From NCBI RefSeq assembly GCF_013122565.1, contig NZ_CP053258.1: a stretch of 64,000 nt of DNA. One strand, written 5' to 3'. The notes under the pieces were generated by a model that saw only the letters and a program-made list of their open reading frames with translations, was not told the origin of the DNA and ran no database searches. Both the position numbers and the translations under genes were made by a program. The stretch comes from Escherichia coli. Lineage in GTDB: Bacteria > Pseudomonadota > Gammaproteobacteria > Enterobacterales > Enterobacteriaceae. The number at the start of each line of letters is the position of its first letter. Within the stretch, counting starts at the first letter, position 1. This document shows, piece by piece, positions 43,765 to 60,109 of the stretch.

Positions 43765-45192
43765 CTAGCGCGACTGCTGATTATATTCATCATCGCGTTG
43801 ATAAGCTTCATCATTCGGCTGCTCCGGAACCGACCGAAGTCGATACTCTTCATCCTGGCTCACCGCCTGTTCAGCCAAATCCGGATTAATCTCGCGTTTA
43901 ATTTCTACTCCTAAACCGCGAAACGCTTCTGCCTGCGCCAGCACATTTCCGCGACCTGAAGAGAGTTTTTTCATTGCCTGGCGGTAGTTATCCTGCGCTT
44001 TGTCGAGACTTTGACCAATCGCTGACATGTCATCGACGAACAAACGCATCTTGTCGTACAGCTTGCTGGCACGATCGGCGATTTGCTGGGCGTTGCGGCT
44101 TTGATGCTCATAACGCCACAGGTTGGCGATAGTGCGCAGCGCCACCAGCAGCGTAGTCGGGCTAACCAGCATGATATTGTTTTTCAACGCTTCGGTGATC
44201 AGCTCCGGCTGGCGGTCAAGCGCCAGTAAAAAAGCGGGTTCAACGGGAATAAACATCAGCACGTAATCCAGGGTTCGCAGCCCCGGCAGCTGTTGATAAT
44301 CTTTGCGTCCCAGCAAACGGATATGGTTACGCACCGACGCGATATGTTCCTGTAGCGCGCTTTCGCGGGTGTAGTCGTCTTCGGCGTTAAAATAGCGTTC
44401 ATAGGCGACCAGCGTCATTTTGGCGTCGATCACCACATCTTTTCCCTGCGGCAGCCGCACGATGACATCCGGCTGCATCCGCGAGCGGGCGTCATTTTCG
44501 ATGCTGACCTGGGTTTCATATTCATACCCTTCACGCAGACCGGAAGCCTCCAGCACCCGCGTCAATACTACCTCGCCCCAGTTGCCCTGGGTTTTATTGT
44601 CGCCTTTCAGCGCGCGCGTCAGGTTGATCGCTTCCTGGGCCATTTGCGCGTTGAGCTGCTGGAGATTGCGAATTTCGTGGGTCAGGGTATGGCGTTCTTG
44701 TGCTTCTTTACCAAAGCTGTCCTGAACCTGACGGCGGAAACCGTCCAGTTGTTCACGTAGCGGCGACAACAGGCTGTTCAGGCTCTGACGGTTTTGCTCA
44801 TCAACCCGGCGATTGCTGTGCTCAAAAATACGGTTGGCGAGGTTTTCAAACTGCTCACTGAGGCGCTGCTCGCTGTTAATCATCTGGCGAATTTTATCGT
44901 CAGCATGTTGCTGTGCGGCTTCCATCCGCGTGGTTACTTCACGCAGATCGGCCTCCAGAGAGGTGTTAATACTTTGCAGGCTGCGCACTTCGTTATTGAG
45001 TAACTCGCACTCTGCACGCCAGTGCTCGCTTAGGGTAATTTGTTGTTTTGCCGCGCTTAACTCCGCGACCATCTCTTCACGTTCAGCTAATTGCTCGGCT
45101 TTTTGCTGCGCATGTTGATAACTGGCAAACAGCCAGCCAATTGCCACACCCACCAACGCAATAACTGCGTAAACCATGATTGAGAAATCCAC
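43765..45192 (-). CDS. rmuC: DNA recombination protein RmuC
   Basis: 475-aa ORF with N-terminal TM, long coiled coil, RmuC C-terminal domain. Confidence 0.92.
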   Translation of the reverse strand: MDFSIMVYAVIALVGVAIGWLFASYQHAQQKAEQLAEREEMVAELSAAKQQITLSEHWRAECELLNNEVRSLQSINTSLEADLREVTTRMEAAQQHADDKIRQMINSEQRLSEQFENLANRIFEHSNRRVDEQNRQSLNSLLSPLREQLDGFRRQVQDSFGKEAQERHTLTHEIRNLQQLNAQMAQEAINLTRALKGDNKTQGNWGEVVLTRVLEASGLREGYEYETQVSIENDARSRMQPDVIVRLPQGKDVVIDAKMTLVAYERYFNAEDDYTRESALQEHIASVRNHIRLLGRKDYQQLPGLRTLDYVLMFIPVEPAFLLALDRQPELITEALKNNIMLVSPTTLLVALRTIANLWRYEHQSRNAQQIADRASKLYDKMRLFVDDMSAIGQSLDKAQDNYRQAMKKLSSGRGNVLAQAEAFRGLGVEIKREINPDLAEQAVSQDEEYRLRSVPEQPNDEAYQRDDEYNQQSR

Positions 45193-45283
45193 AACGCCTC
45201 CTGACGCAACAACTTACCCGCACAAAATAGAATTGTGCTGTACAAACGTCCAGTTGGAAAGGCATTTCCTGCGAGGTGCTACG

Positions 45284-45316
45284 CAAAAATACAAAAGGCC
45301 GAACGCGTCGGCCTTC
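45284..45316 (-). terminator. Intrinsic terminator downstream of udp
   Basis: aaggccgacgcgttcggcctttt-gtattttt on the minus strand. Confidence 0.65.
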
Positions 45317-45332
45317 AGACAGGAGAAGAGAA

Positions 45333-46094
45333 TTACAGCAGACGACGCGCCGCTTCCACCACGATTTTCACCGCTTGGCTTTCAGTTTGTTTCATCGTCT
45401 CAGCATTCGGGATCTCTTGCTGGGTGCGGTTAACGATAACACCCGCTACCATACCGGCACGCAGGCCCTGAGTTGCACACATGGTCAGCAGGGTTGCAGA
45501 TTCCATTTCATAGTTCATTACGCCCATCGCCTGCCACTCTTCCATAGAACCTTTAAAGTGACGAACTACGCGACCAGAGTAAGTATCGTAACGTTCCTGA
45601 CCTGGGTAGAAGGTATCAGAAGAAGCTGTCACGCCAACGTGAGTTGTCGCGCCAATGGATTTCGCAGCTTCAACCAGCGCAGTCGTACATTCGAAATCAG
45701 CGACAGCCGGGAATTCCAGCGGTGCGAAGTGCAGGCTCGCGCCATCCAGACGGACAGACGCCGTGGTAACCAGGACATCACCCACATTAATATGCGGCTG
45801 AATAGCGCCCGTTGTACCGATACGCAGGAAGGTGCGAATGCCCAGCTGTGCCAGCTCTTCAACAGCAATAGAGGTAGAAGGGCCACCGATACCGGTAGAG
45901 CAGACAATAACAGGTTTACCATCCAGCTCTGCACGCCAGGTGGTGAATTCGCGGTGAGATGCCAGCTTAACCGGCTTATCCATCAGCGCGGCGATCTTTT
46001 CCACACGATCCGGGTCGCCAGGGACGATGGCAAGCGTAGCCCCTTGTAAATCGTTTTTAGTGAGGCCGAGATGAAAAACATCAGACTTGGACAT
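45333..46094 (-). CDS. udp: Uridine phosphorylase
   Basis: Start set at [30 protein letters not shown] (253 aa). Confidence 0.96.
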
Positions 46095-46355
46095 ATACAA
46101 CTCCTCTGTGAATCGGTTTAGTCAGAAGAAGCAAAAAGACACTTTACCGAAGGGTTTAACATTTTTTCGTGATACTCATCACCATGACGCAAATGCGTTG
46201 CATAAATTTACCCACCAAAAGTGATGCAAATCACATAAATCACTCTTCATTCTGCAGGACTGCATAAAAGATGAGCCGATTCAGGCAATGTGATTTGTTG
46301 CATGCTGACTATAGTTAACATTGCGCAACATTTTTATAAGGGTACGGAGAATACC

Positions 46356-47171
46356 ATGGCAACAACACAACAATCTGGATTTGCACCTGCTGCATCGCCT
46401 CTCGCTTCGACCATCGTTCAGACCCCGGACGACGCGATTGTGGCAGGCTTCACCTCTATCCCTTCACAAGGGGATAACATGCCTGCTTACCAGGCAAGAC
46501 CAAAGCAAAGCGATGGCCCACTGCCAGTGGTCATTGTAGTGCAGGAAATTTTTGGCGTGCATGAACATATCCGCGACATTTGTCGCCGTCTGGCGCTGGA
46601 GGGGTATCTGGCTATCGCACCTGAACTTTACTTCCGCGAAGGCGATCCGAATGATTTTGCCGATATCCCCACGTTGCTTAGCGGTCTGGTAGCAAAAGTG
46701 CCTGACTCGCAGGTGCTGGCCGATCTCGATCATGTCGCCAGTTGGGCTTCCCGCAACGGCGGCGATGCTCATCATTTAATGATCACCGGATTCTGCTGGG
46801 GTGGACGTATCACGTGGTTGTATGCCGCGCATAATCCACAGCTAAAAGCCGCAGTGGCGTGGTATGGCAAACTGACGGGCGATAAGTCGCTGAATTCACC
46901 GAAACAACCTGTTGATATCGCAACCGATCTTAACGCGCCGGTTCTCGGCTTATATGGTGGTCAGGATAACAGCATTCCGCAGGAGAGCGTTGAAACCATG
47001 CGCCAGGCGCTGCGGGCTGCTAATGCGAAAGCAGAGATTATCGTGTACCCGGATGCCGGGCATGCATTCAACGCTGATTATCGCCCGAGCTATCATGCCG
47101 AATCTGCAAAAGATGGCTGGCAACGAATGCTGGAATGGTTCAGGCAGTATGGTGGGAAGAAGTCACTGTAA
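46356..47171 (+). CDS. ysgA: Dienelactone hydrolase family protein
   Basis: Start set at [11 protein letters not shown] (271 aa); alpha/beta hydrolase with GFCWGG nucleophile elbow. Confidence 0.85.
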
Positions 47172-47210
47172 TGATAAAAGGCCGGGTGGCGTTGCCACCC
47201 GGTTCGGATT

Positions 47211-49472
47211 TTACCCCCGACGCAAATTCTGCGCCGCCTGCACCATGTTCGCCAGTGCCGCGCGGGTTTCTGGCCAGCCGCGCGTTTTCAGGCCACAGTC
47301 CGGGTTGACCCACAGGCGCTCTGCCGGAATGCGTTTTGCCGCTTTCTTCAGCAAGGCTTCAATCCATTCCACGCTCGGTACGTTTGGCGAGTGAATGTCA
47401 TAGACGCCTGGACCGATTTCATTCGGATAATCAAACTCTTCGAACGACTCCAGCAACTCCATGTCAGAACGCGAGGTTTCGATGGTGATGACGTCTGCGT
47501 CCAGCGCCGCAATCGAATCCATGATGTCGTTGAACTCGCAATAACACATGTGGGTGTGGATTTGTGTGTCATCTTTCGCCACGGCGGCGTTGATACGGAA
47601 GGCCTCTACGCCCCACTGGAGATAGGCATCCCAGTCGCTACGACGCAGCGGTAAACCTTCGCGCAGCGCCGGTTCATCAATCTGGATGATGCCAATTCCT
47701 GCGGCTTCCAGGTCCGCCACTTCATCACGCAGCGCCAGCGCAATTTGTTTGGCGATGGTTTCACGGCTGACATCTTCACGCGGGAACGACCAGCAGAGAA
47801 TGGTCACCGGGCCAGTCAGCATCCCTTTCACCGGTTTATCAGTCAGAGATTGCGCATACTTCGCCCACTCCACGGTAATCGGTGCCGGGCGGCTAACGTC
47901 ACCAATGACAATCGGTGGCTTCACGCAGCGGGAACCGTAGCTCTGTACCCAACCGTTTTGCGTAAAGACAAAACCGTCGAGGTGCTCGCCAAAGTATTCC
48001 ACCATGTCATTACGCTCAGCCTCGCCATGAACCAGCACATCCAGTCCCAAACGTTCCTGCTCAACAATGGCCTGCTTGATATGTTCCGCAATGCCCGTGC
48101 GGTAGTTGTTAGCGTCGAGATTACCCTTTTTGAAATCCAGACGCAGGGTACGAATTTCCGTAGTTTGCGGGAAAGAACCAATCGTGGTGGTCGGCCATGC
48201 TGGGAGTTTAAAACGCGCACGCTGGGCTTCAGCACGCACTTCATAGACATTCGCACGCTGACTGTCCTGAGCGGTGATCGCTGCCAGACGCTTTTCCACC
48301 GCCGGATTATGTACGCGGGTTGAGTGACGACGCGCCTGAATCGGGGCGCTCCACTCTGCCAGAGCTGCCGTGTCACCACTGTTCAGCGCATCGCGCAGCA
48401 GTGCCAGTTCATGGCATTTTTGTAGGGCGAAGGCAAACCAGCTTTTCACTTCTGCATCAAGACGCGTTTCCACGCTCAGGTCGATGGGGCTGTGCAACAG
48501 TGAGCAGGAAGATGCCACCCACAAATCGCGTTTGCCGACAATGTCCTTAATTTGCGCATATTTCTCGGTAAGATCGGCGCGCCAGACGTTACGACCATTG
48601 ATCAGACCCGCAGACAGCAACCAGTCAGAAGGCAGGCGCTTGTGCAGTTCAGCAACGTCATCTTTACCATGTACAAGGTCCACATGCAGCCCCTGAACAG
48701 GCAGCGCAGTAATCGTGTCGAGGTTTGGCGTTACGCCTTCAAAATAAGTGGTCAGCAGCAGTTTCACCTGGCCCTGGAGCGCGTCGTAAGCGGGTTTGTA
48801 TGCGTCCAGCCACGCCTGCGGTAGTTCCAGTACCAGCGCGGGTTCGTCGATCTGTACCCACTCAATGCCGCGTTTTGCCAGTTCTGCCAGCACTTGCTGA
48901 TAAACCGGCAGAATGTCGTTCAGCAGGCTCAGGCGGTCAAATTGTTCACCTTTCACTTTCCCCAGCCACAGCCAGGTAACCGGCCCCAGCAGCACAGGTT
49001 TCACCTTGTGGCCCAGCGCCAGCGCCTCGTCCACTTCGTCCAGCAGCTGCGTCCAGGTCAGTTTGAACTGTTGGCCTTTAACGAACTCCGGCACCATGTA
49101 GTGATAGTTGGTGTTAAACCATTTGGTCATTTCCGCTGCCGCCGCAGGTTCGCCAGTCGGCGCACGTCCACGACCAATACGGAACAGGGTGTCGATATCT
49201 ACCGAACCATCTTTGTTCTGATGACGCGCCGGAACGTTACCCAGCAGCAGACTGGTGGTCAGTACATGATCGTACCAGGCAAAATCGCCCACCGGCAGCA
49301 GGTCGATACCCGCTTGCTTTTGTTGATCCCAGTGACGAGCACGCAATTCACGCCCTACCGCCAGCAGTTCTTCACGCGTGGAGTTCCCCGCCCAATAACT
49401 CTCTTGCGCTTTTTTCAGCTCGCGACGCAGGCCAACGCGAGGGAAACCGAGGGTGTGATTAAGAATTGTCAT
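47211..49472 (-). CDS. metE: Cobalamin-independent methionine synthase
   Basis: 753-aa [32 protein letters not shown]. Confidence 0.97.
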
Positions 49473-49577
49473 TATATGCCCCTTATGGAATTTTTAGTAT
49501 TTAGCCGTCCAGATGTTTACACATCCATAATTGGCGGTTACTGTATATTCCTCAAGCGCAAATTATTCATGCCGAAG

Positions 49578-49590
49578 TGAAGGACTTTCA
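49578..49590 (+). promoter_or_regulatory. MetR-type binding site (TGAA-N5-TTCA) overlapping metR start
   Basis: tgaaggactttca in the metE-metR divergent intergenic region. Confidence 0.5.
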
Positions 49591-50543
49591 TGATCGAAGT
49601 AAAACACCTGAAAACGCTACAAGCGTTGCGGAACTGCGGCTCGCTCGCAGCCGCTGCGGCGACGTTGCATCAGACGCAATCCGCCCTGTCTCACCAGTTT
49701 AGCGATCTGGAACAACGCCTTGGCTTCCGGCTATTTGTGCGTAAGAGCCAGCCGCTTCGCTTTACACCGCAGGGAGAAATCCTGTTGCAACTGGCAAACC
49801 AGGTGCTGCCGCAAATCAGCCAGGCACTGCAAGCCTGCAATGAACCGCAGCAGACGCGTCTGCGCATTGCCATTGAGTGCCATAGCTGTATTCAGTGGCT
49901 GACGCCCGCGTTAGAAAATTTCCATAAGAACTGGCCGCAGGTAGAGATGGATTTTAAATCGGGCGTGACGTTTGACCCGCAGCCTGCGTTGCAACAGGGC
50001 GAGCTGGATCTGGTGATGACCTCCGATATCCTGCCGCGCAGTGGCCTGCATTATTCGCCGATGTTCGACTATGAAGTGCGTCTGGTGTTAGCACCTGATC
50101 ATCCACTGGCGGTGAAAACGCGAATCACGCCGGAAGATCTCGCCAGCGAGACGCTGTTGATTTATCCGGTGCAGCGTAGCCGACTGGATGTCTGGCGGCA
50201 TTTTCTTCAGCCGGCAGGCGTCAGCCCGTCACTGAAAAGCGTCGATAACACCTTATTGTTGATTCAGATGGTTGCCGCGCGGATGGGTATTGCCGCGCTA
50301 CCGCATTGGGTAGTAGAGAGTTTTGAGCGCCAGGGTCTGGTGGTGACCAAAACCCTGGGCGAAGGCTTGTGGAGCCGACTGTACGCCGCCGTGCGCGATG
50401 GCGAGCAGCGTCAGCCGATTACAGAAGCATTTATTCGCTCAGCGCGCAATCACGCCTGCGATCATCTGCCGTTTGTGAAGAGCGCGGAGCGACCCACTTA
50501 CGATGCACCCACAGTGAGGCCAGGATCACCAGCGCGCCTGTAA
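49590..50543 (+). CDS. metR: LysR-family transcriptional activator MetR
   Basis: 317-aa [39 protein letters not shown] (HTH) + LysR substrate domain. Confidence 0.96.
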
Positions 50544-51330
50544 TAAACGTTGGCCAGTGCGGCTGTTGGTGCCAGATAGCCAGGTTTACCAGCAGCCCTG
50601 CCGGAACGTGCATATTATTCATAATGCCCAGCGTTCCGGCGTCTACTTGGGTTGCGCCGTAGTTCCACATAAAGTAGCCAATCCCGGAAGCCACCACGCC
50701 AAGAAACACCAGAATGCCCCATTGCAACGTGGTTTGCGGCATTTTCTGCGCATTTCCCAGCAAGAACCATGCAATTACCGCCACCAGGAACGCGCCAAGA
50801 TAGAACCACGCAAAGGCGTTATGCTGCGGCATCGGGCGAGTTTCCATCAGGCGTTTGTAACCCACCATGCCGATGGCAAAAGTGATATTGGAGAGTTGCA
50901 CCAGCAACAAGCCAGTCCAGAAATGGTCGGTGACCTGATCATAGCGAATAATCCCGGCACCAATCACCGCCAGCAAGGCGCTAAAAGCATAGCCCCAGCG
51001 CAGACGGCGCTTACTCATGATGTCATAAATCAGCGTGATGTAGAGCGGCGTCAGCACGGTGAACAGCAGCAGCTCGGAAACCGTCAGGTAGAGATAGGCG
51101 CGGAAACTCAGCATATACATCACGCCAAGCTGCATCGCGCCCACCAGCATATACAGGCCGACCGTTTTCAGGCTATTGCCACGGGTACGCAGAAACGGCA
51201 GAAAAACGAGTGCCGCCAGGCCAACGCGCACCAGCACGGCAAAATAGCTATCGACGTGCCCCGCAAGGTACTCGCCATAAAAACTAAAGGAGAAGGCCCA
51301 CAAAATCGTGGTGATGATAAGTAGCGCCAC
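50431..51330 (-). CDS. yigM: EamA/DMT-family inner membrane transporter YigM (biotin transporter BioP)
   Basis: 299-aa ten-[29 protein letters not shown]; 3' end overlaps the metR 3' end by 113 nt. Confidence 0.85.
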
Positions 51331-51405
51331 AATGGAAAACTCTTTGATTAACGAGTATCCATTGTAGCGAAGTATCAGGTTGACAACTGACCAAATAAAG
51401 AACGA

Positions 51406-52206
51406 TTACGATAAATAGAGTTTACGCAGATAATGCGGCACCGCGTCGTCGGCATTAGTACCAATCACTTCCAGCTCGGGATGAAGGTCTTTCAGACGCT
51501 GGTGCGCACTGCCCATAATGCAGCCTTTCCCCGCCATCGACAGCATTTCGGCATCGTTCATCCCGTCACCAAACGCAATACAATCCTTCAGGCTGTAGCC
51601 CAGTTTCTTCGCCACCGCTTCCAGCGCATGGCCTTTTGAAACGCCGCCCGCCATCACTTCCAGACAGGTTAAGGTAGAGAAACTGACGTTGACGCGATCG
51701 CCCCAACGAGCGTTAATCGCCTGCTCCAGCGGCAGCAGTTGTTCATGGGAATCGCAGGTGAAGAACACTTTGCTGACGCCTTCCGGCTCCAGTAATCCAG
51801 GCTCATACAGCGCATATTTGAACACCGCTTCTTTAAAAAAGCGCATCTCTTCCGGGCGATGGCGATTCATAAACCATTCGTCGTCGCGATAAACGTTAGT
51901 AATGATGTCCGGATTGTCGTTGACTACGCCAAACAGATCGCTGGCAATGTCGCGATCCAGGTTATGAGCAAAAATCAGATTACCATCCAGATCGTGAACG
52001 CGCGCACCATTGGAGGTAATCATGTAAGACTTAATCTCCAGATTATCGCGAATTTGCCCCACATCAACGTGGTGACGACCGGTCGCAAACACAAAGTTGA
52101 TGCCGCGCGCGGTGAGCAGCTTCAGGGTTTCTTTGGCGTAAGGGGATAACGTATGGTCGGGAGAAAGTAACGTGCCATCTAAATCAGACGCAACAACCTG
52201 GTACAT
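51406..52206 (-). CDS. yigL: HAD-IIB (Cof-like) sugar/pyridoxal phosphate phosphatase YigL
   Basis: Start set at MYQVVASDLDGTLLSPDHTL (266 aa); GDGMNDAEML motif. Confidence 0.9.
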   Translation of the reverse strand: MYQVVASDLDGTLLSPDHTLSPYAKETLKLLTARGINFVFATGRHHVDVGQIRDNLEIKSYMITSNGARVHDLDGNLIFAHNLDRDIASDLFGVVNDNPDIITNVYRDDEWFMNRHRPEEMRFFKEAVFKYALYEPGLLEPEGVSKVFFTCDSHEQLLPLEQAINARWGDRVNVSFSTLTCLEVMAGGVSKGHALEAVAKKLGYSLKDCIAFGDGMNDAEMLSMAGKGCIMGSAHQRLKDLHPELEVIGTNADDAVPHYLRKLYLS

Positions 52207-52213
52207 AAGAAAT

Positions 52214-53236
52214 TTAAACCTCTGTAGAGCGGTTTCCGCTGGGTGAGTTATGCCTGTTGAAAAAATCAACGATGGCGTGGAGCGCGACTGAGCGCATTGC
52301 GTCCTTTTCAAAAAGGATCTCATGGTAAGCACCTTTAATTACCAACGGCCGTCCTCCTTCGACAGGATGGCCCGCGGCGGTGCGGAGTTCACAAAAACGG
52401 TCATGCATGCGGTTATCCACCACGCGTTCCTCTTCAGCCTGCAAGAGAAGCGTTGGCGTGGCGTCATCACCCGCACCGGCTAACACCTGTTCGCCAGCCA
52501 GAATACTTTCGCGTACCCAATGGTAGGTCGGCCCACCGACGCGAATCGTTGGGTCATCAGCATAGAAGCGTAAGTTACGTCGATATCGCTGTCTGCTGTG
52601 GGTCAGTACGTTGATAGCAAACGGCAACGCGCGCCAGCGCCCGGTGCCTATTGCATAGCCATCACGGAAACGTGGATGCGCTTCGGCCCAGTTGAGGATC
52701 TGCCGTGCCATAAATGACGGCATACGAATCACGATCCCAAACATTGGCGCAGTTAGCGCAATGGCGTCACATACACCTGGATGGCGTTGCAGAAATAATG
52801 TGGAGATCGCACCGCCCATCGAGTGCGCCAGTATATAGCGTTTACGCCACGGACCGGGCTGAACCTCCTGTTGCCAGAATGCCGCCAGATCATCAACATA
52901 ATCATTAAAGCGATTAACATGCCCGAGATGCGGATCGGCTAACAGGCGACCGGAACGTCCCTGCCCGCGATGGTCGATGATTAAGACATCAAACCCCAAA
53001 TGGAACAGGTCGTAGGCCAGTTCCGCATATTTTACGTAGCTCTCAATACGCCCCGGGCAGATGACTACCACCCGGTCATGGTGCTGTGCGCGAAAACGGA
53101 CAAAGCGCACCGGAATGTCATCCACACCAGTAAATTCTGCTTCATCACGCTGACGCCAGAAATCAGTCAGCGGTCCCATGGTAAAAGCAGCAAACGCGTT
53201 TTCTCTTGTTTCCCAGTCTTTTTGCTGCTGAAACAT
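52214..53236 (-). CDS. pldB: Lysophospholipase L2
   Basis: 340-aa ORF with alpha/beta hydrolase GHSMGG nucleophile motif. Confidence 0.95.
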   Translation of the reverse strand: MFQQQKDWETRENAFAAFTMGPLTDFWRQRDEAEFTGVDDIPVRFVRFRAQHHDRVVVICPGRIESYVKYAELAYDLFHLGFDVLIIDHRGQGRSGRLLADPHLGHVNRFNDYVDDLAAFWQQEVQPGPWRKRYILAHSMGGAISTLFLQRHPGVCDAIALTAPMFGIVIRMPSFMARQILNWAEAHPRFRDGYAIGTGRWRALPFAINVLTHSRQRYRRNLRFYADDPTIRVGGPTYHWVRESILAGEQVLAGAGDDATPTLLLQAEEERVVDNRMHDRFCELRTAAGHPVEGGRPLVIKGAYHEILFEKDAMRSVALHAIVDFFNRHNSPSGNRSTEV

Positions 53237-53346
53237 CGGGTAATCTGCCTCTTAAACCACGTAAAATCGTTTTTTTAAGCGTGCCTGACACAACGCTGCG
53301 ACAGTAGCGTATTGTGGCACAAAAATAGACACACCGGGAGTTCATC

Positions 53347-53967
53347 ATGACCTTAGAATGGTGGTTTGCCTACCTGCTGACATCGATCATTTTAAGCCTG
53401 TCGCCAGGCTCTGGCGCAATCAACACCATGACCACCTCGCTCAACCACGGTTATCGCGGCGCGGTGGCGTCTATTGCTGGGCTTCAGACCGGACTGGCGA
53501 TTCATATTGTGCTGGTTGGCGTGGGGTTGGGGACGCTATTTTCCCGCTCAGTGATTGCGTTTGAAGTGTTGAAGTGGGCGGGCGCAGCTTATCTGATTTG
53601 GCTTGGGATCCAGCAGTGGCGCGCCGCTGGCGCAATTGATCTTAAATCGCTGGCCTCTACTCAATCGCGTCGACATTTGTTCCAGCGCGCAGTGTTTGTG
53701 AATCTTACCAATCCCAAAAGTATTGTGTTTCTGGCGGCGCTATTTCCGCAATTCATCATGCCGCAGCAGCCACAACTGATGCAGTATATCGTGCTCGGCG
53801 TCACCACTATTGTGGTCGATATTATTGTGATGATCGGTTACGCCACCCTTGCTCAACGGATTGCTCTATGGATTAAAGGACCAAAGCAGATGAAGGCGCT
53901 GAATAAGATTTTCGGCTCGTTGTTTATGCTGGTGGGAGCGCTGTTAGCATCGGCGAGGCATGCGTGA
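53347..53967 (+). CDS. rhtB: Homoserine/homoserine lactone efflux protein (LysE/RhtB family)
   Basis: 206-aa [30 protein letters not shown]. Confidence 0.93.
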
Positions 53968-53976
53968 AAAATAATG

Positions 53977-54005
53977 TCGGATGCGGCGTAAACGCCTTAT
54001 CCGAC
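53977..54005. repeat. REP element
   Basis: tcggatgcggcgtaaacgccttatccgac between convergent rhtB and rhtC. Confidence 0.7.
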
Positions 54006-54028
54006 TTACTCTGATGACGCGTCTGGCA

Positions 54029-54649
54029 TCAACGCGAAATAATCAAATGAATGCCAAATCCGGCAAATAACGCCCCGGCAAAACCATCAATCCACTTCGC
54101 CAGACGTTGATAACCACGGCGCATTTGCGGCAGGGCAAACAGGCTGGCAACGACGGTAAACCACGCCAGTGTTTCGACAATAATCAACGCGAAAATGCCC
54201 CAGCGCTCGGTGGTGCCGACGTTATCGCCGACAAACAGCGAGAATACCGAACCAAAGTAGATAATCGCTTTCGGATTGGCGAGATTAGTCAGTAAACCTT
54301 TCAGGAAACTGCGCCCGCTTTTCGCCAGCTCGACCTGTGGCGCAGGTGCAGAAACAGCCTCTTTTTTCAGAGCACCACGCAGCATCTGATAACCCATCCA
54401 GCAGAGATACAGGCCACCGCCCACCATAATCAGCGTATGCAGCCAGGCCATTTTTTCGATAATCAAATGCAGGCCAAGCAACGCAATCCCAGCCCAAACC
54501 ATTACGCCGCAGGTAATGCCCAGCACGCCCATCATCGCTTCTTTACGGGAACGACTGACAGCGGTCTGAGAGACAAAAAAGAAATCGGGACCGGGGCTCA
54601 TAAGCGCCACAATGTGCACCATGGCGACGGTGAGGAATAACATCAACAT
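54029..54649 (-). CDS. rhtC: Threonine efflux protein (LysE/RhtB family)
   Basis: 206-aa ORF MLMLFLTVAMVHIVALMSPGPDFFFV. Confidence 0.93.
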   Translation of the reverse strand: MLMLFLTVAMVHIVALMSPGPDFFFVSQTAVSRSRKEAMMGVLGITCGVMVWAGIALLGLHLIIEKMAWLHTLIMVGGGLYLCWMGYQMLRGALKKEAVSAPAPQVELAKSGRSFLKGLLTNLANPKAIIYFGSVFSLFVGDNVGTTERWGIFALIIVETLAWFTVVASLFALPQMRRGYQRLAKWIDGFAGALFAGFGIHLIISR

Positions 54650-54712
54650 ACATTAGACTCGCGGGGGAAACGTTTACGGAGTCTTCATCCTGGCACTTTT
54701 TTATCCTGCTGA

Positions 54713-56542
54713 CTACTCTTCGTCATCGCCATCAACATGTGCACGAATCAGCGCCATAAACGGTTTGCCAAAGCGTTCCAGCTTGCGCATCCCAACGCCG
54801 TTAACGCTGAGCATTTCGCTGGCAGTGATCGGCATCTGTTCAGCCATCTCAATCAAGGTCGCGTCGTTAAACACCACGTACGGCGGGACATTGCTTTCAT
54901 CGGCAATCGATTTACGCAGTTTGCGTAATTTGGCGAACAGTTTGCGATCGTAGTTGCCGCCGAAGGATTTCTGCATCGCTTTCGGTTTGAGCGCCACGAT
55001 ACGTGGCACGGCAAGTTGCAAAGAGGATTCGCCGCGCAGCACCGGACGCGCAGCCTCTGTCAGTTGTAGGGCAGAATGCTGGGCAATATTTTGCGTCACC
55101 AGGCCGAGGTGAATCAGCTGGCGGATCACGCTCACCCAATGTTCATGGCTTTTATCACGGCCCATGCCATAGACTTTCAGTTTGTCATGACCATAGTCGC
55201 GGATACGCTGGTTATTAGCGCCACGAATCACTTCCACCACATAACCCATCCCAAACCGCTGATTCACCCGACCAATGGTGGAAAGGGCAATCTGTGCATC
55301 GGTTGAACCATCGTACTGTTTCGGCGGATCGAGGCAAATATCGCAGTTCCCGCACGGCTCCTGCCGCCCTTCGCCAAAATAGTTCAGCAATACCAGACGA
55401 CGGCAAGTTTGCGCTTCGGCAAAAGCGCCCATCGCATTGAGTTTATGACGTTCGATATCCTGCAACTGCCCCTGCGGCTTCTCTTCCAGGCAACGGCGCA
55501 GCCACGCCATATCCGCCGGATCGTAAAACAGCATCGCTTCCGCGGGCAGGCCATCACGCCCGGCGCGTCCGGTTTCCTGATAATAGGATTCGATATTGCG
55601 CGGAATGTCAAAATGCACCACGAAGCGGACGTTAGGTTTGTTGATGCCCATGCCGAACGCCACCGTCGCCACCACAATTTGCAGGTCATCGCGCTGGAAT
55701 TTCTCCTGCACGTCGGCGCGAATATTATTTTCCAGCCCGGCATGATAGGCCGCCGCGCTGATACCCTTGCTTTGCAGACGCGCGGCGGTGTCTTCTACTT
55801 TCGCCCGACTGTTGCAGTAAATAATCCCCGACTTACCGCGTTGTTCCTGCACGTAGCGCATCAGCTGATCGAGAGGTTTGAACTTCTCCATCAGCATGTA
55901 GCGAATATTCGGACGGTCAAAACTGCTAATTTGAATCAGCGGATCGTTCAGCCCCAGCAGGCGCACGATATCCTGGCGCGTGGTGTCGTCGGCTGTGGCG
56001 GTCAGCGCCATAAACGGCAGCGTCGGGAACCGCTGGCGCAACTGACCGAGCGCGGCATATTCCGGGCGGAAATCGTGGCCCCATTGGGAGATACAGTGCG
56101 CTTCATCAACGGCTAATAACACCGGATTCCAGTGCGCCAGATGCTCAAGAAAGTTATCCAGCATCAGGCGTTCCGGCGCGATATACAGTAAGCGAATTTG
56201 CCCGGTGCGACAGCCTGTCATCACGTCAAGTTGCTGCTCGCGGGTTTGCGTCGAGTTAAGGCACGCCGCCGCCACGCCGTTGGCTTGCAGTTGATCCACC
56301 TGATCTTTCATCAACGAAATCAGCGGTGAAACAACCACAGTAAGGCCGTTTAGCAATAAGGCAGGAATTTGATAGCAAAGGGATTTTCCGCCACCAGTGG
56401 GCATGACAACCAGGCAATCGCGACCGGAAAGCACAGTGTCGATAATTTCTTCCTGGCCGGGGCGAAACTGTTGGTAGCCAAAGGTTTCTTGTAAAACCTG
56501 TTTAGCTCCGGACTCCAGATTCAACACTTCCGCCTGCGCCAC
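54713..56542 (-). CDS. recQ: ATP-dependent DNA helicase RecQ
   Basis: DEAH helicase core ([25 protein letters not shown]), RQC zinc cluster CGNCDIC and HRDC domain; GTG start (alternative GTG two codons upstream at 56548). Confidence 0.96.
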
Positions 56543-56557
56543 ATTCACCCCGATTGC

Positions 56558-56591
56558 CTGAAATAAAAACAGGCGCTATTTTCAGCGCCTG
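56558..56591 (-). terminator. Intrinsic terminator immediately upstream of recQ (ends the pldA / orphan-ORF transcript)
   Basis: Minus strand cagcgcctg... caggcgct-gaaaat-agcgcctg followed by TTTTTATTT, about 15 nt before the recQ GTG. Confidence 0.7.
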
Positions 56592-56611
56592 CGCGAGAAA
56601 CTGCAATGCTT

Positions 56612-57070
56612 TTAGTCTCTGAGAGGGTAATCCTGGATACTGGATTCCAGATTTGTCAGGATCAAAGCGACATCGGCATCCGCCAAACGAAACTCCGCCT
56701 GCCATATATTCTCTGACGTATGAAACGTAGGGCATAGCCCGCAAGCCAGTATCACATTGATAATAATGACATCACCGGAATACCCTGTGTATTCGAACTC
56801 CAGGCATGGCTCGGTAAATTCCAGATTTTTCTCTGGGTAGCCATCGGGAGAAGGGCGCTGCAACAATGTGGTAAACCACCTATGAAGCTTTGTTAAGTCA
56901 TATGTCCCTATTGCCGGATCTATCTTTTCAAACCGCTGATTTCCCTGCGTCACGCCCACTTTGAGGAATAACCAGTTACCATCCCAGAAATTACTGGTAT
57001 CAGGATACTGATACCCCATAACATCCAGCGTCAAAGTAACGGCCAGCTCACTATTGCTTAACGTAATCAT
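56612..57070 (-). CDS. Hypothetical 152-aa cytoplasmic protein, no recognisable family
   Basis: Uninterrupted ORF filling nearly all of the 570-bp pldA-recQ spacer; no TM segments or signal peptide evident; weak SD; not a gene I can place in the K-12 gene order. Confidence 0.55.
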   Translation of the reverse strand: MITLSNSELAVTLTLDVMGYQYPDTSNFWDGNWLFLKVGVTQGNQRFEKIDPAIGTYDLTKLHRWFTTLLQRPSPDGYPEKNLEFTEPCLEFEYTGYSGDVIIINVILACGLCPTFHTSENIWQAEFRLADADVALILTNLESSIQDYPLRD

Positions 57071-57118
57071 AGCATTTGATTTTTAAACAAAAATTAGGTG
57101 CTGGCACTCTACCATGCA

Positions 57119-57988
57119 TTAAAACAGGTCGTTTAGCATAACTCCCACACCGACGCGGGTCTGGTTAAAGTTATAGTCGATGAGCGATTCGCCGTAACCG
57201 CTGTAGACCTGGGTATAAAGACGTACATGTTTGGTGATCGGGTAACTTAAGCCTAACTCCGCGCCGCCGTAGCCGGTGTTCCAGTTGTACTGTCCTTTCG
57301 CACTGAGCACCGCATCACCGAGGTGATAGCCGATTTTAAGCTGGTAGTAACCCATATATTTGGTGATATCCGGGTTATCGTCAGTATTACCCACCACATA
57401 CCACGGCTTCACTTCTACCAGCCAGTTACCGTTTTCTGCCATCAGGCGAGTATAAAGGCGGTTCCAGCTGCGGGAGGTCGGGTCTGAACGCCCGTTAGAG
57501 TCGTGGTTATACCCCATCTCTACATCGCGCAACGTCCAGCCTGCAAAACGGTAATCGGTGGCAAAACCGAGGAACAATTGCGGTTCGTAGTTGGTTTCAC
57601 GAAACGGTGAAGACTCTTCGCTATTGGACAGTTGCCACCAGGATTTTTGCGTATAAGACGCACCCAACACCGAGTTCGGGCCTAAAATCCCACGCCACAG
57701 CGGAAATGCCAGGCTCAACTGAAACTTTACTTCATCCTTACGCGCATTTTCCGCCCAGTCGTAACTGGCAATAGCTTCTTTATTCAGATCGCTGGTTTGT
57801 GTGTAGATGAGGTAGTTGGTGTCATAAGGATAGAGCGTGAACGGATTGTCATGCTCCTGCAGCATATTGGCGATAATACTGCCACGCACCGCTGGCGCGT
57901 CATGCACCTCTTTCACCGTTGCCTCTTGTGCATATACTGCCATAGGCAACATAAACACCGGCAACAACCAGCCCTGCAGAGTCCGCAT
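57119..57988 (-). CDS. pldA: Outer membrane phospholipase A
   Basis: 289-aa ORF with signal peptide and beta-barrel alternating pattern, C-terminal ...VGVMLNDLF. Confidence 0.95.
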   Translation of the reverse strand: MRTLQGWLLPVFMLPMAVYAQEATVKEVHDAPAVRGSIIANMLQEHDNPFTLYPYDTNYLIYTQTSDLNKEAIASYDWAENARKDEVKFQLSLAFPLWRGILGPNSVLGASYTQKSWWQLSNSEESSPFRETNYEPQLFLGFATDYRFAGWTLRDVEMGYNHDSNGRSDPTSRSWNRLYTRLMAENGNWLVEVKPWYVVGNTDDNPDITKYMGYYQLKIGYHLGDAVLSAKGQYNWNTGYGGAELGLSYPITKHVRLYTQVYSGYGESLIDYNFNQTRVGVGVMLNDLF

Positions 57989-58152
57989 CGATCGTGTTCT
58001 CCGTAACGAATTATTGATAAGGTGAATATTTTTCTGCGGGCTATTTTACATACTTAACTCCATAGCCGTTAGTTATCCCTTCCTAAAGTAGAAACCAACA
58101 ACAAAGAAGCATAAAATCAACATTTCATTAACCAATGAAGTGTAAGGATGAT

Positions 58153-58620
58153 ATGTCTGCCGTACTGACCGCTGAACAAGCCCTGAAATTAGTGGGTGAG
58201 ATGTTTGTTTATCACATGCCATTTAACCGCGCATTGGGGATGGAACTGGAGCGTTACGAAAAAGAGTTCGCACAGCTGGCCTTTAAAAATCAGCCAATGA
58301 TGGTGGGCAACTGGGCGCAAAGCATTTTGCACGGCGGGGTCATTGCGTCGGCGCTGGATGTCGCCGCCGGTCTGGTGTGCGTGGGAAGTACCTTAACCCG
58401 CCACGAAACCATCAGTGAAGATGAACTACGCCAGCGACTATCGCGGATGGGGACCATTGATCTTCGCGTCGATTATCTGCGCCCAGGCAGAGGCGAGCGT
58501 TTTACTGCTACCAGTAGCCTGTTGCGTGCAGGCAATAAAGTCGCCGTCGCCCGCGTTGAATTACACAATGAAGAACAGCTTTATATTGCCAGTGCCACCG
58601 CCACCTATATGGTAGGTTGA
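58153..58620 (+). CDS. yigI: Hotdog-fold (4HBT/PaaI-type) thioesterase YigI
   Basis: Start set at [17 protein letters not shown] (155 aa). Confidence 0.88.
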
Positions 58621-58671
58621 TAACGTAAAAGCAGGTAAACTGCTGTTACCAATTAAAAATGAGTATTCCCG

Positions 58672-59559
58672 ATGGATGCAAAACAAACGCGGCAGGGCGT
58701 ATTACTCGCTCTTGCCGCTTATTTTATTTGGGGTATTGCGCCAGCGTACTTCAAGCTGATTTACTACGTGCCCGCCGATGAGATCCTGACGCATCGCGTG
58801 ATCTGGTCGTTTTTCTTTATGGTGGTGCTGATGAGCATTTGCCGCCAGTGGTCCTATTTAAAAACGCTGATTCAGACGCCACAGAAAATTTTTATGCTGG
58901 CAGTCTCTGCCGTGCTGATTGGTGGCAACTGGCTACTGTTTATCTGGGCGGTGAACAATCACCATATGCTGGAAGCGAGCCTTGGTTACTTTATTAACCC
59001 GCTGGTGAACATTGTGCTGGGGATGATTTTCCTCGGCGAGCGATTCCGCCGGATGCAATGGCTGGCGGTGATTCTGGCGATATGTGGCGTGTTGGTCCAG
59101 CTGTGGACTTTTGGTTCGCTACCTATTATCGCGCTGGGGCTGGCATTTAGTTTTGCCTTCTACGGCCTGGTGCGCAAGAAGATTGCGGTAGAAGCACAAA
59201 CCGGCATGTTAATTGAAACCATGTGGCTGCTGCCCGTGGCAGCGATTTACCTGTTTGCTATTGCCGACAGCTCAACCAGCCATATGGGGCAAAACCCGAT
59301 GTCGCTGAATTTACTGCTGATCGCCGCCGGTATTGTCACTACCGTACCGCTGTTGTGTTTTACTGCAGCTGCGACACGCCTGCGTCTCTCAACGTTAGGC
59401 TTTTTCCAGTATATTGGCCCGACGCTGATGTTTCTGCTGGCTGTGACGTTTTATGGTGAAAAACCGGGTGCCGATAAGATGGTGACTTTCGCCTTTATTT
59501 GGGTGGCGCTGGCAATTTTTGTGATGGATGCGATTTATACGCAGCGTAGAAAAAGTTAG
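58672..59559 (+). CDS. rarD: EamA/DMT-family transporter RarD
   Basis: 295-aa ten-TM ORF MDAKQTRQGVLLALAAYFIWGIAPAYFK. Confidence 0.93.
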   Translation: MDAKQTRQGVLLALAAYFIWGIAPAYFKLIYYVPADEILTHRVIWSFFFMVVLMSICRQWSYLKTLIQTPQKIFMLAVSAVLIGGNWLLFIWAVNNHHMLEASLGYFINPLVNIVLGMIFLGERFRRMQWLAVILAICGVLVQLWTFGSLPIIALGLAFSFAFYGLVRKKIAVEAQTGMLIETMWLLPVAAIYLFAIADSSTSHMGQNPMSLNLLLIAAGIVTTVPLLCFTAAATRLRLSTLGFFQYIGPTLMFLLAVTFYGEKPGADKMVTFAFIWVALAIFVMDAIYTQRRKS

Positions 59560-59605
59560 GCATTAACATGGGTAGGCCATTTAAAAAGCCTACCCACTGA
59601 CTTAT

Positions 59606-59923
59606 CTATCTTTTTTTGAAAAAAATTAAGATAAGAAAAAGTACGATATTTGTTACAGGAAATACACCCAAAACTCCCCAGTACTTACTCCATCCTAGAG
59701 ACATTGTATATCTACCAAGGATTTGACAAAACCCAAAACTTAACCCTATACCTATACTTCTTAAATTTAATGTCGTAGTCAGGCTTAAAATAAATAGAAC
59801 AAGGATGGTAATAGCCCACCACAATAACCACGCCTTAACAAAATCAGATTTTTTGCTGTAAGGTTCTTTACCCAAGAACAACTGCCAAAAATTACCATTT
59901 TCCATATAGAAACCATTCACCAA
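59606..59923 (-). CDS. Small AT-rich inner membrane protein (two or three TM helices)
   Basis: 105-aa ORF in strongly AT-rich DNA; hydrophobic segments WLLWWAITILVLFILSL and VLGVFPVTNIVLFLILIFF; may correspond to one of the K-12 yigF/yigG small membrane genes. Confidence 0.5.
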   Translation of the reverse strand: MVNGFYMENGNFWQLFLGKEPYSKKSDFVKAWLLWWAITILVLFILSLTTTLNLRSIGIGLSFGFCQILGRYTMSLGWSKYWGVLGVFPVTNIVLFLILIFFKKR

Positions 59924-60109
59924 AAGTATTATTCATGGAAACAAATATTATTTAATTATATTTAGTCCCCCTCAATAAAAACTTACACACTCTAAATTAC
60001 TACTGTATAGTTATCAATACAAAGGCTGTCATATTGCATGGATATAACAAGCATATGCTCTAAATAATGTATATACACTTAAACCAATCATATACTAAAC
60101 AATATAAAA

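Follow-up and report, generated by a model that had tools for sequence, protein, structure and literature searches.

We analysed a window of 64,000 nucleotides of Escherichia coli DNA (contig NZ_CP053258.1), where window refers to the whole stretch, and focused on the 69 nt directly upstream of recQ (56543-56611). The features of this junction are listed with their coordinates in Table 1. Read along the minus strand, pldA is followed by a WapI-like gene (wapI in the following), the 69-nt interval and recQ. The encoded PldA is 100% identical to that of K-12 (tblastn), and the gene is annotated as pldA in K-12 as well as in strain N3. The GTG start of recQ at 56542 is invariant in the 16 taxa of our alignment. 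An alternative in-frame GTG at 56548 is not conserved, and RefSeq uses the equivalent of 56542 instead.

Table 1. Features of the pldA/recQ junction and of the LexA box near rmuC (window coordinates).
Feature	Coordinates	Strand	Remarks
pldA, outer-membrane phospholipase A	57119..57988	minus	289-aa ORF, same direction as and upstream of recQ
446-nt segment missing from K-12 and nearly all E. coli	56659..57104	minus	part of the pldA-wapI spacer plus wapI
wapI-like gene, 152 aa ('orphan ORF' of the initial annotation)	56612..57070	minus	TAA stop at 56614..56612
wapI 3' end, non-coding remnant in K-12	56612..56658	minus	K-12 L001:1747-1795
candidate -35 hexamer TTGCAG of a putative recQ promoter	56601..56606	minus	best sigma-70-like pair nearby
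hairpin CAGGCGCT-GAAAAT-AGCGCCTG	56570..56591	minus	predicted terminator stem-loop of the pldA(-wapI) transcript
5' arm CAGGCGCT	56591..56584	minus	
loop GAAAAT, candidate -10 hexamer	56583..56578	minus	17 nt after TTGCAG
3' arm AGCGCCTG	56577..56570	minus	
T run TTTTTATTT, putative terminator U run	56569..56561	minus	directly after the stem
CTG-N9-CAG (LexA-like element of the initial annotation)	56572..56558	minus	
recQ Shine-Dalgarno GGGGTG	56551..56546	minus	GGGG kept 5-6 nt before GTG in the alignment
recQ, 609 aa from GTG 56542	54713..56542	minus	RefSeq start in K-12 and N3; rhtC next
rmuC LexA box	45236-45255	minus	between udp (46100..45333) and rmuC (45192..43765)

The initial annotation had placed a terminator hairpin with a T run immediately before recQ. 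This is confirmed by the coordinates, by a terminator scan (10 pairs, 6 of them G-C) and by folding. That is, the hairpin folded alone reaches -16.6 kcal/mol (z = -4.77), with 0/200 shuffled sequences being as stable; folding of the wider 86-nt stretch around it is unremarkable (z = -1.2). The U run has the form U5AU3 and sits immediately 3' of the stem. The proposed spacing of about 15 nt between hairpin and start is loose: the stem is separated from the GTG at 56542 by 27 nt and the T run by 18 nt, with 12 nt being obtained for the GTG at 56548. The further suggestion that terminator and recQ control region form one compact unit is borne out, given that hairpin and T run directly precede recQ.

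Both pldA and wapI lie upstream of the hairpin on the same strand, and the terminator scan finds no other terminator-like site in the pldA-wapI spacer. A search of the junction against Rfam yields only sub-threshold chance matches to eukaryotic families. Hairpin and U run most likely constitute an intrinsic (Rho-independent) terminator, which we expect to be active in vivo.

With regard to K-12, the interval 56543-56611 is 100% identical, and 120/122 aligned bases agree over 56658..56537. The respective pldA-recQ gap of K-12 MG1655 comprises 132 nt (NC_000913.3, 4005732-4005863). Within the species, 5414/5425 complete E. coli genomes contain a 57-nt core (56556..56612) with at least 99% identity and in a single copy. 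The arrangement is that of K-12 and hence already known. Judging from the sequence comparisons, 56543-56611 is the ancestral pldA/recQ junction throughout the Enterobacteriaceae and not a strain-specific one.

This bears on the suggestion of the initial annotation that an inserted gene upstream of recQ may have changed the expression context of recQ. The junction does not owe its arrangement to this gene. The initial annotation had named an identical arrangement in K-12 with a known promoter as an observation that would speak against its reading, and the identical arrangement is found: everything within 115 nt upstream of recQ matches K-12. Since the control region agrees with the laboratory reference, the observation is of little consequence for recQ in the window strain. 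An altered recQ regulation via new internal promoters or a changed upstream context is highly improbable. It could draw on the 446 nt of different DNA upstream of position -116 and on weak promoter-like pairs within the 3' end of the ORF (6.6-6.9 bits); yet these weak sites fall in part within the stretch still present in K-12, and any transcript begun within the ORF has to pass the whole terminator.

The ORF itself matches the Pfam family PF24716 (WapI) with E = 1.5e-21 and 77.5 bits (cutoff 27), covering profile positions 9-138 of 138. RefSeq names it 'WapI family immunity protein' in strain N3, and none of the NCBIfam models matches it. The family is named after the immunity protein to the WapA toxin of B. 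subtilis. Only 2/5426 complete E. coli genomes carry wapI (N3 and GF43), both in the same place, and 2 public contigs are the only ones to encode the exact protein, each in the gene order yigI-pldA-WapI-recQ. In the window, N3, GF43, E. albertii and the two public contigs alike, wapI is flanked by pldA and recQ, and a cognate polymorphic toxin gene next to it is absent. Given no adjacent toxin gene, wapI looks like an 'orphan' immunity gene. One further hairpin reported by the terminator scan, a perfect 8-bp palindrome GGTATCAG-TATC-CTGATACC, lies inside the wapI ORF (56996-57015, minus strand). It has a poor T run (AGTAATTTCT) and is probably not a terminator.

In a global alignment, K-12 is collinear with the window only over 57150..57105 and 56658..56537. 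Ordinary E. coli homology resumes at window positions 56658-56655 in all sampled genomes, and the same deletion junction is observed in all sampled E. coli. Read in frame, the remnant in K-12 (last ~46 nt) encodes LANLESSIQDYPLRD, compared to ...LTNLESSIQDYPLRD in the window. In E. albertii, the slot between pldA and recQ is occupied by a WapI-family ORF of 159 aa with 44% identity (L005:1949-2425), and no ORF is found between the two genes in Citrobacter, Enterobacter, Kluyvera and the other genera sampled.

The initial annotation had called the gene inserted. This is not supported, since K-12 keeps an in-frame 3' remnant with the same junction and E. albertii a divergent allele in the slot; that is, wapI was probably not inserted in the window strain. 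Remnant and E. albertii allele together imply that most E. coli lost wapI by the 446-nt deletion. In the simplest history, an Escherichia ancestor would have gained wapI and one ancient deletion would have removed it from most E. coli. The K-12 pldA-recQ spacer thus holds the remnant of a WapI-like gene that is intact only in rare E. coli lineages, and of which E. albertii has a divergent intact allele. By appearance, the slot combines an orphan immunity gene of divergent alleles with one ancient 446-nt deletion.

The last ~30 nt of wapI in N3 (CATCCAACATTATCCAGCCAGACGCTAA, L002:3600-3640) are nearer to the E. albertii allele than to the version shared by the window and K-12 (CATCCAGGATTACCCTCTCAGAGACTAA). 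The N3 allele suggests mosaic recombination at the 3' end of wapI. For window positions 44000-60000, the best identity among the 5426 complete RefSeq E. coli genomes is 97.9% over 16 kb, i.e., no close relative is found among them, and the third-codon positions of recQ are only 92% identical to K-12. This places the window in a divergent lineage of E. coli, which may be a cryptic clade. The best match of 97.9% fits a divergent lineage that kept wapI.

We also evaluated the CTG...CAG element at the end of the stem, for which the initial annotation had considered a LexA-like box and had noted a spacing one base short of the consensus. The spacing is correctly described: the element reads CTG-N9-CAG, compared to CTG-N10-CAG (CTGT-N8-ACAG) for the LexA box. 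The pattern occurs 36 times in the window, which is chance level. Scoring was based on a matrix built from 23 known SOS boxes of E. coli. Here, the best 20-mer over the element reaches 2.83 bits vs. 13.4-27.3 bits for the training sites, and about 0.1% of the window's 20-mers reach at least this score. The downstream CAG is lost (AAG, CTG, TAC or others) in Citrobacter FP75, E. cloacae, Kluyvera and others, with the T run being kept. In spacing and matrix score as well as in chance frequency and conservation, the element does not qualify as a LexA-like box. We rejected this reading and judge the element to be a chance by-product of stem end and T run.

That the element nevertheless acts as a LexA (SOS) operator rendering recQ damage-inducible is hardly credible. 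In favour of such a role, the element would overlap the predicted recQ start site; the only other point for it is a title, namely that of Irino et al. 1986, which announces 'evidence for SOS regulation'. Besides the deficits listed above, recQ appears neither in the table of genes having LexA boxes of HI below 14 that was compiled in 2024 nor in the text of that study (Sass and Lovett 2024, PMC11228462).

Elsewhere in the window, a strong LexA box TGCTGTACAAACGTCCAGTT of 16.5 bits is found 44 nt upstream of the RmuC/YigN ORF (Table 1). It is the sole window site within the score range of known SOS boxes and provides a positive control for the matrix. rmuC is listed as LexA-regulated with HI 8.8 (Sass and Lovett 2024, PMC11228462).

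To assess conservation beyond Escherichia, loci were collected by a species-level genome scan with the RecQ N-terminus, which gave at least ~20 Enterobacterales loci among the matches listed. Among these matches, 13 taxa keep the block CATTGCAG-(9 variable nt)-CAGGCGCTGAAAATAGCGCCTG-T run just upstream of recQ, namely K-12, E. albertii, two Citrobacter, E. cloacae, Kluyvera, Superficieibacter, three 'Enterobacter sp.', Mangrovibacter, Brenneria and Pectobacterium. Over the 37 nt from TTGCAG to CCTG, these 13 taxa among the matches listed are 84-100% identical to the window, with the four-fold synonymous sites of recQ (first 150 codons) being only 35-60% identical outside Escherichia; out to Pectobacterium and Brenneria, such sites are saturated.

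Conservation is unevenly distributed over the block. Among the 13 taxa of the matches listed, the loop GAAAAT is identical in 13/13, TTGCAG in 12/13 (TTGAAG in E. cloacae), the 3' arm in 12/13 and the 5' arm in 11/13. The 9 nt following TTGCAG show 56-89% identity across the same taxa. The distance from TTGCAG to GAAAAT is always 17 nt without indels in these taxa; indels are observed after the T run. A T-rich run is kept in most taxa of the alignment, and the 18-nt core of the hairpin is identical in 12 further species among the matches listed. With regard to the stem, 90.8% of the alignment cells are paired and zero two-sided changes are observed, i.e., the stem is simply invariant. Given no compensatory changes, covariation neither supports nor contradicts the stem structure.

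Several taxa depart from the common layout. In Pectobacterium and Brenneria, two outer pairs are lost via changes in the 5' arm, and the CCTG of the 3' arm is unchanged. Budvicia has a separate hairpin with T run just after pldA; near recQ, it shows acGACA-17-TAAAAT-AGCGCC (9/12 hexamer matches) without hairpin or T run. In Superficieibacter, an operon of ABC-transporter and redoxin genes replaces pldA upstream, and the recQ block is intact. The pldA-recQ gap is reduced to 63-90 nt in some genera, which still keep the block. In three of the taxa (gap 63-70 nt), the pldA stop codon directly abuts TTGCAG, such that no room for another promoter is left outside pldA. 'Klebsiella sp.' BIGb0407 (L014) has lost pldA, with rarD and yigI being oriented away from recQ. 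Decay has affected the hairpin there as well as the -10-like hexamer, which reads GAAAAC. Since they decay together, the roles of terminator and promoter are not separated there.

Different sequences are found upstream of recQ in Yersinia artesiana, Acerihabitans and the Morganellaceae. The latter (Photorhabdus, Arsenophonus; L020, L021, L023:2380-2500) share another conserved motif, ATGCTGTAATT..GAGT.AG.TAGCATAAT, in which CATAAT, a good -10-like hexamer, precedes a weaker hairpin with T run. This hairpin could lie inside the recQ leader and act as an attenuator.

A plain terminator needs neither a fixed loop and arm sequence nor a conserved upstream hexamer, which argues for a second function of the block, most likely that of a promoter. 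The reading we favour, and regard as reasonably probable from the sequence evidence, is a terminator of pldA(-wapI) whose DNA also encodes a weak sigma-70 promoter of recQ's own. Conserved -35 and -10 hexamers at fixed spacing with the first 9 spacer nt drifting form a pattern that fits a promoter. In the 250 nt upstream of recQ, no sigma-70-like pair scores higher than TTGCAG-17-GAAAAT (8.4 bits; the matrix values are approximations). This pair has 8/12 hexamer matches, which is below the scan threshold of 9/12; accordingly, the promoter scan of 56300-57300 reports no promoter-like site at this threshold. About 1.5 such sites per kb are expected by chance, such that the promoter score alone is not significant. 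A sigma-54 promoter was also considered, since TTGCA resembles a -12 element, and was rejected by eye for the missing GG at -24.

Published data were screened as well. The searched supplements on transcript 5'/3' ends list neither recQ nor pldA (one of them covers only positions below 4.0 Mb), and literature searches for a recQ promoter gave nothing useful. The paper by Shimada on constitutive RpoD promoters (SELEX) mentions neither recQ nor pldA. In the SELEX paper on minor sigma factors, the sole peak in this region is one for sigma-28 inside pldA, about 440 nt upstream of recQ.

In detail, we infer promoter hexamers and start site, as well as the action of the terminator in vivo, as follows. 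Hairpin and U run would end the upstream transcript, i.e., that of pldA in K-12 and that of pldA-wapI in the window. For recQ, TTGCAG (56606..56601) would serve as the -35 hexamer, followed by a 17-nt spacer that includes the 5' arm. The loop GAAAAT, which has the critical A (position 2) and T (position 6), would provide the -10 hexamer, and the 3' arm would supply a G+C-rich discriminator (AGCGCC). G 56570 or a nearby base would be the transcription start, such that a purine at +1 follows a pyrimidine at -1, and TTTTTATTT would become the first transcribed bases. A recQ mRNA starting at G 56570 would lack the 5' arm and would thus be unable to form the terminator hairpin. That is, recQ transcripts begun after the loop would escape the very terminator that stops pldA transcripts. 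The resulting leader of about 28 nt with its GGGG Shine-Dalgarno and GTG start would fit a low-abundance protein. Since the arms would have to pair and, at the same time, to serve as spacer and discriminator, this double use would explain the invariance of the block.

The initial annotation had considered promoters inside the upstream ORF together with read-through. Such internal promoters are not needed to account for the expression of recQ, given that genera with a pldA-recQ gap of only 63-90 nt keep the same block.

As an alternative, the hairpin may be only a terminator or attenuator, with recQ having no promoter of its own and being expressed by the small fraction of pldA/wapI transcripts that read through. 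We consider this rather unlikely. Read-through agrees with the canonical form of the terminator, with the weakness of the promoter candidate (8/12, and a score that is not significant by itself), with the wide conservation of pldA next to recQ, and with the joint decay of hairpin and -10-like hexamer upon loss of pldA. Yet it leaves unexplained why the loop is invariant and TTGCAG is conserved at a fixed distance of 17 nt, why the sequence of the 3' arm is conserved where pairing is lost, and why Budvicia has TAAAAT-AGCGCC without a hairpin. Furthermore, block and recQ are intact in Superficieibacter behind a different operon, i.e., with pldA not upstream.

The palindrome AGGCGCT-N6-AGCGCCT could also be the operator of some DNA-binding regulator of recQ, besides its other roles, to which we give little credence. 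An operator would account for the constancy of both arms and of the loop (13 taxa among the matches listed share an unchanged 18-nt core, without a compensatory substitution), and its overlap with the predicted -10 hexamer and start site would be typical of a repressor. To our knowledge, there is no candidate regulator for this palindrome. Moreover, E. coli genomes hold no second copy of the core, the window holds just one look-alike with 3 mismatches, and a terminator and promoter in the same DNA already account for the invariance. For the block being single-copy in E. coli with this one look-alike in the window, we also rejected that it is a repeated element or regulon motif.

Beyond the combination of terminator and promoter, the near-invariance of the 22-nt palindrome with its loop from Escherichia to Pectobacterium raises the question of whether more than two functions are packed into one DNA stretch, which seems improbable to us. 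Three possibilities can be named. First, termination of pldA might be coupled to initiation at recQ, with polymerase being released exactly at the recQ +1 position, resulting in promoter occlusion or hand-off. Second, the palindrome might be a regulator's operator as discussed above. Third, a recQ mRNA starting with G-UUUUU-A-UUU might be subject to UTP-sensitive initiation via reiterative transcription, by analogy with known cases. UTP-sensitive reiterative transcription is known from pyrBI, codBA and upp. If true, UTP-sensitive initiation would tie recQ to pyrimidine pools. According to the titles of respective references, recQ was discovered via resistance to thymineless death.

In practice, the junction illustrates that a gene need not be without a promoter when a terminator directly adjoins its start codon. 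It provides a clean and deeply conserved terminator along with a likely promoter in the same 40 nt, and thereby a possible test case for interference between termination and initiation. The embedded promoter and the deletion history of wapI are modest extras to an arrangement known from K-12.

Finally, we relate the locus to known systems. The pldA-recQ region of K-12 MG1655 has the same 69-nt interval, hairpin, T run, Shine-Dalgarno and GTG start. It differs in being without 446 nt (57104..56659), keeping just the last ~46 nt of the WapI-like gene, such that the putative terminator would end a pldA transcript in K-12 vs. a pldA-wapI transcript in the window. Compared to WapI immunity proteins, the ORFs of the window and of E. 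albertii both show a full-length match well above the cutoff; wapI of the window differs in having no adjacent toxin gene, in being flanked by pldA and recQ and in matching no NCBIfam model. LexA SOS boxes, e.g., that of rmuC/yigN, share with the CTG-N9-CAG element that CTG and CAG flank a T/A-rich spacer near a predicted start. The element is one base short, reaches 2.8 vs. 16.5 bits for the rmuC box, and its CAG half is unconserved. With intrinsic terminators, the junction shares a G+C-rich stem of 8-10 pairs, a short loop and the U5AU3 run, located after a gene of the same direction. In contrast to them, its stem and loop are kept as sequence across genera, with no compensatory change.
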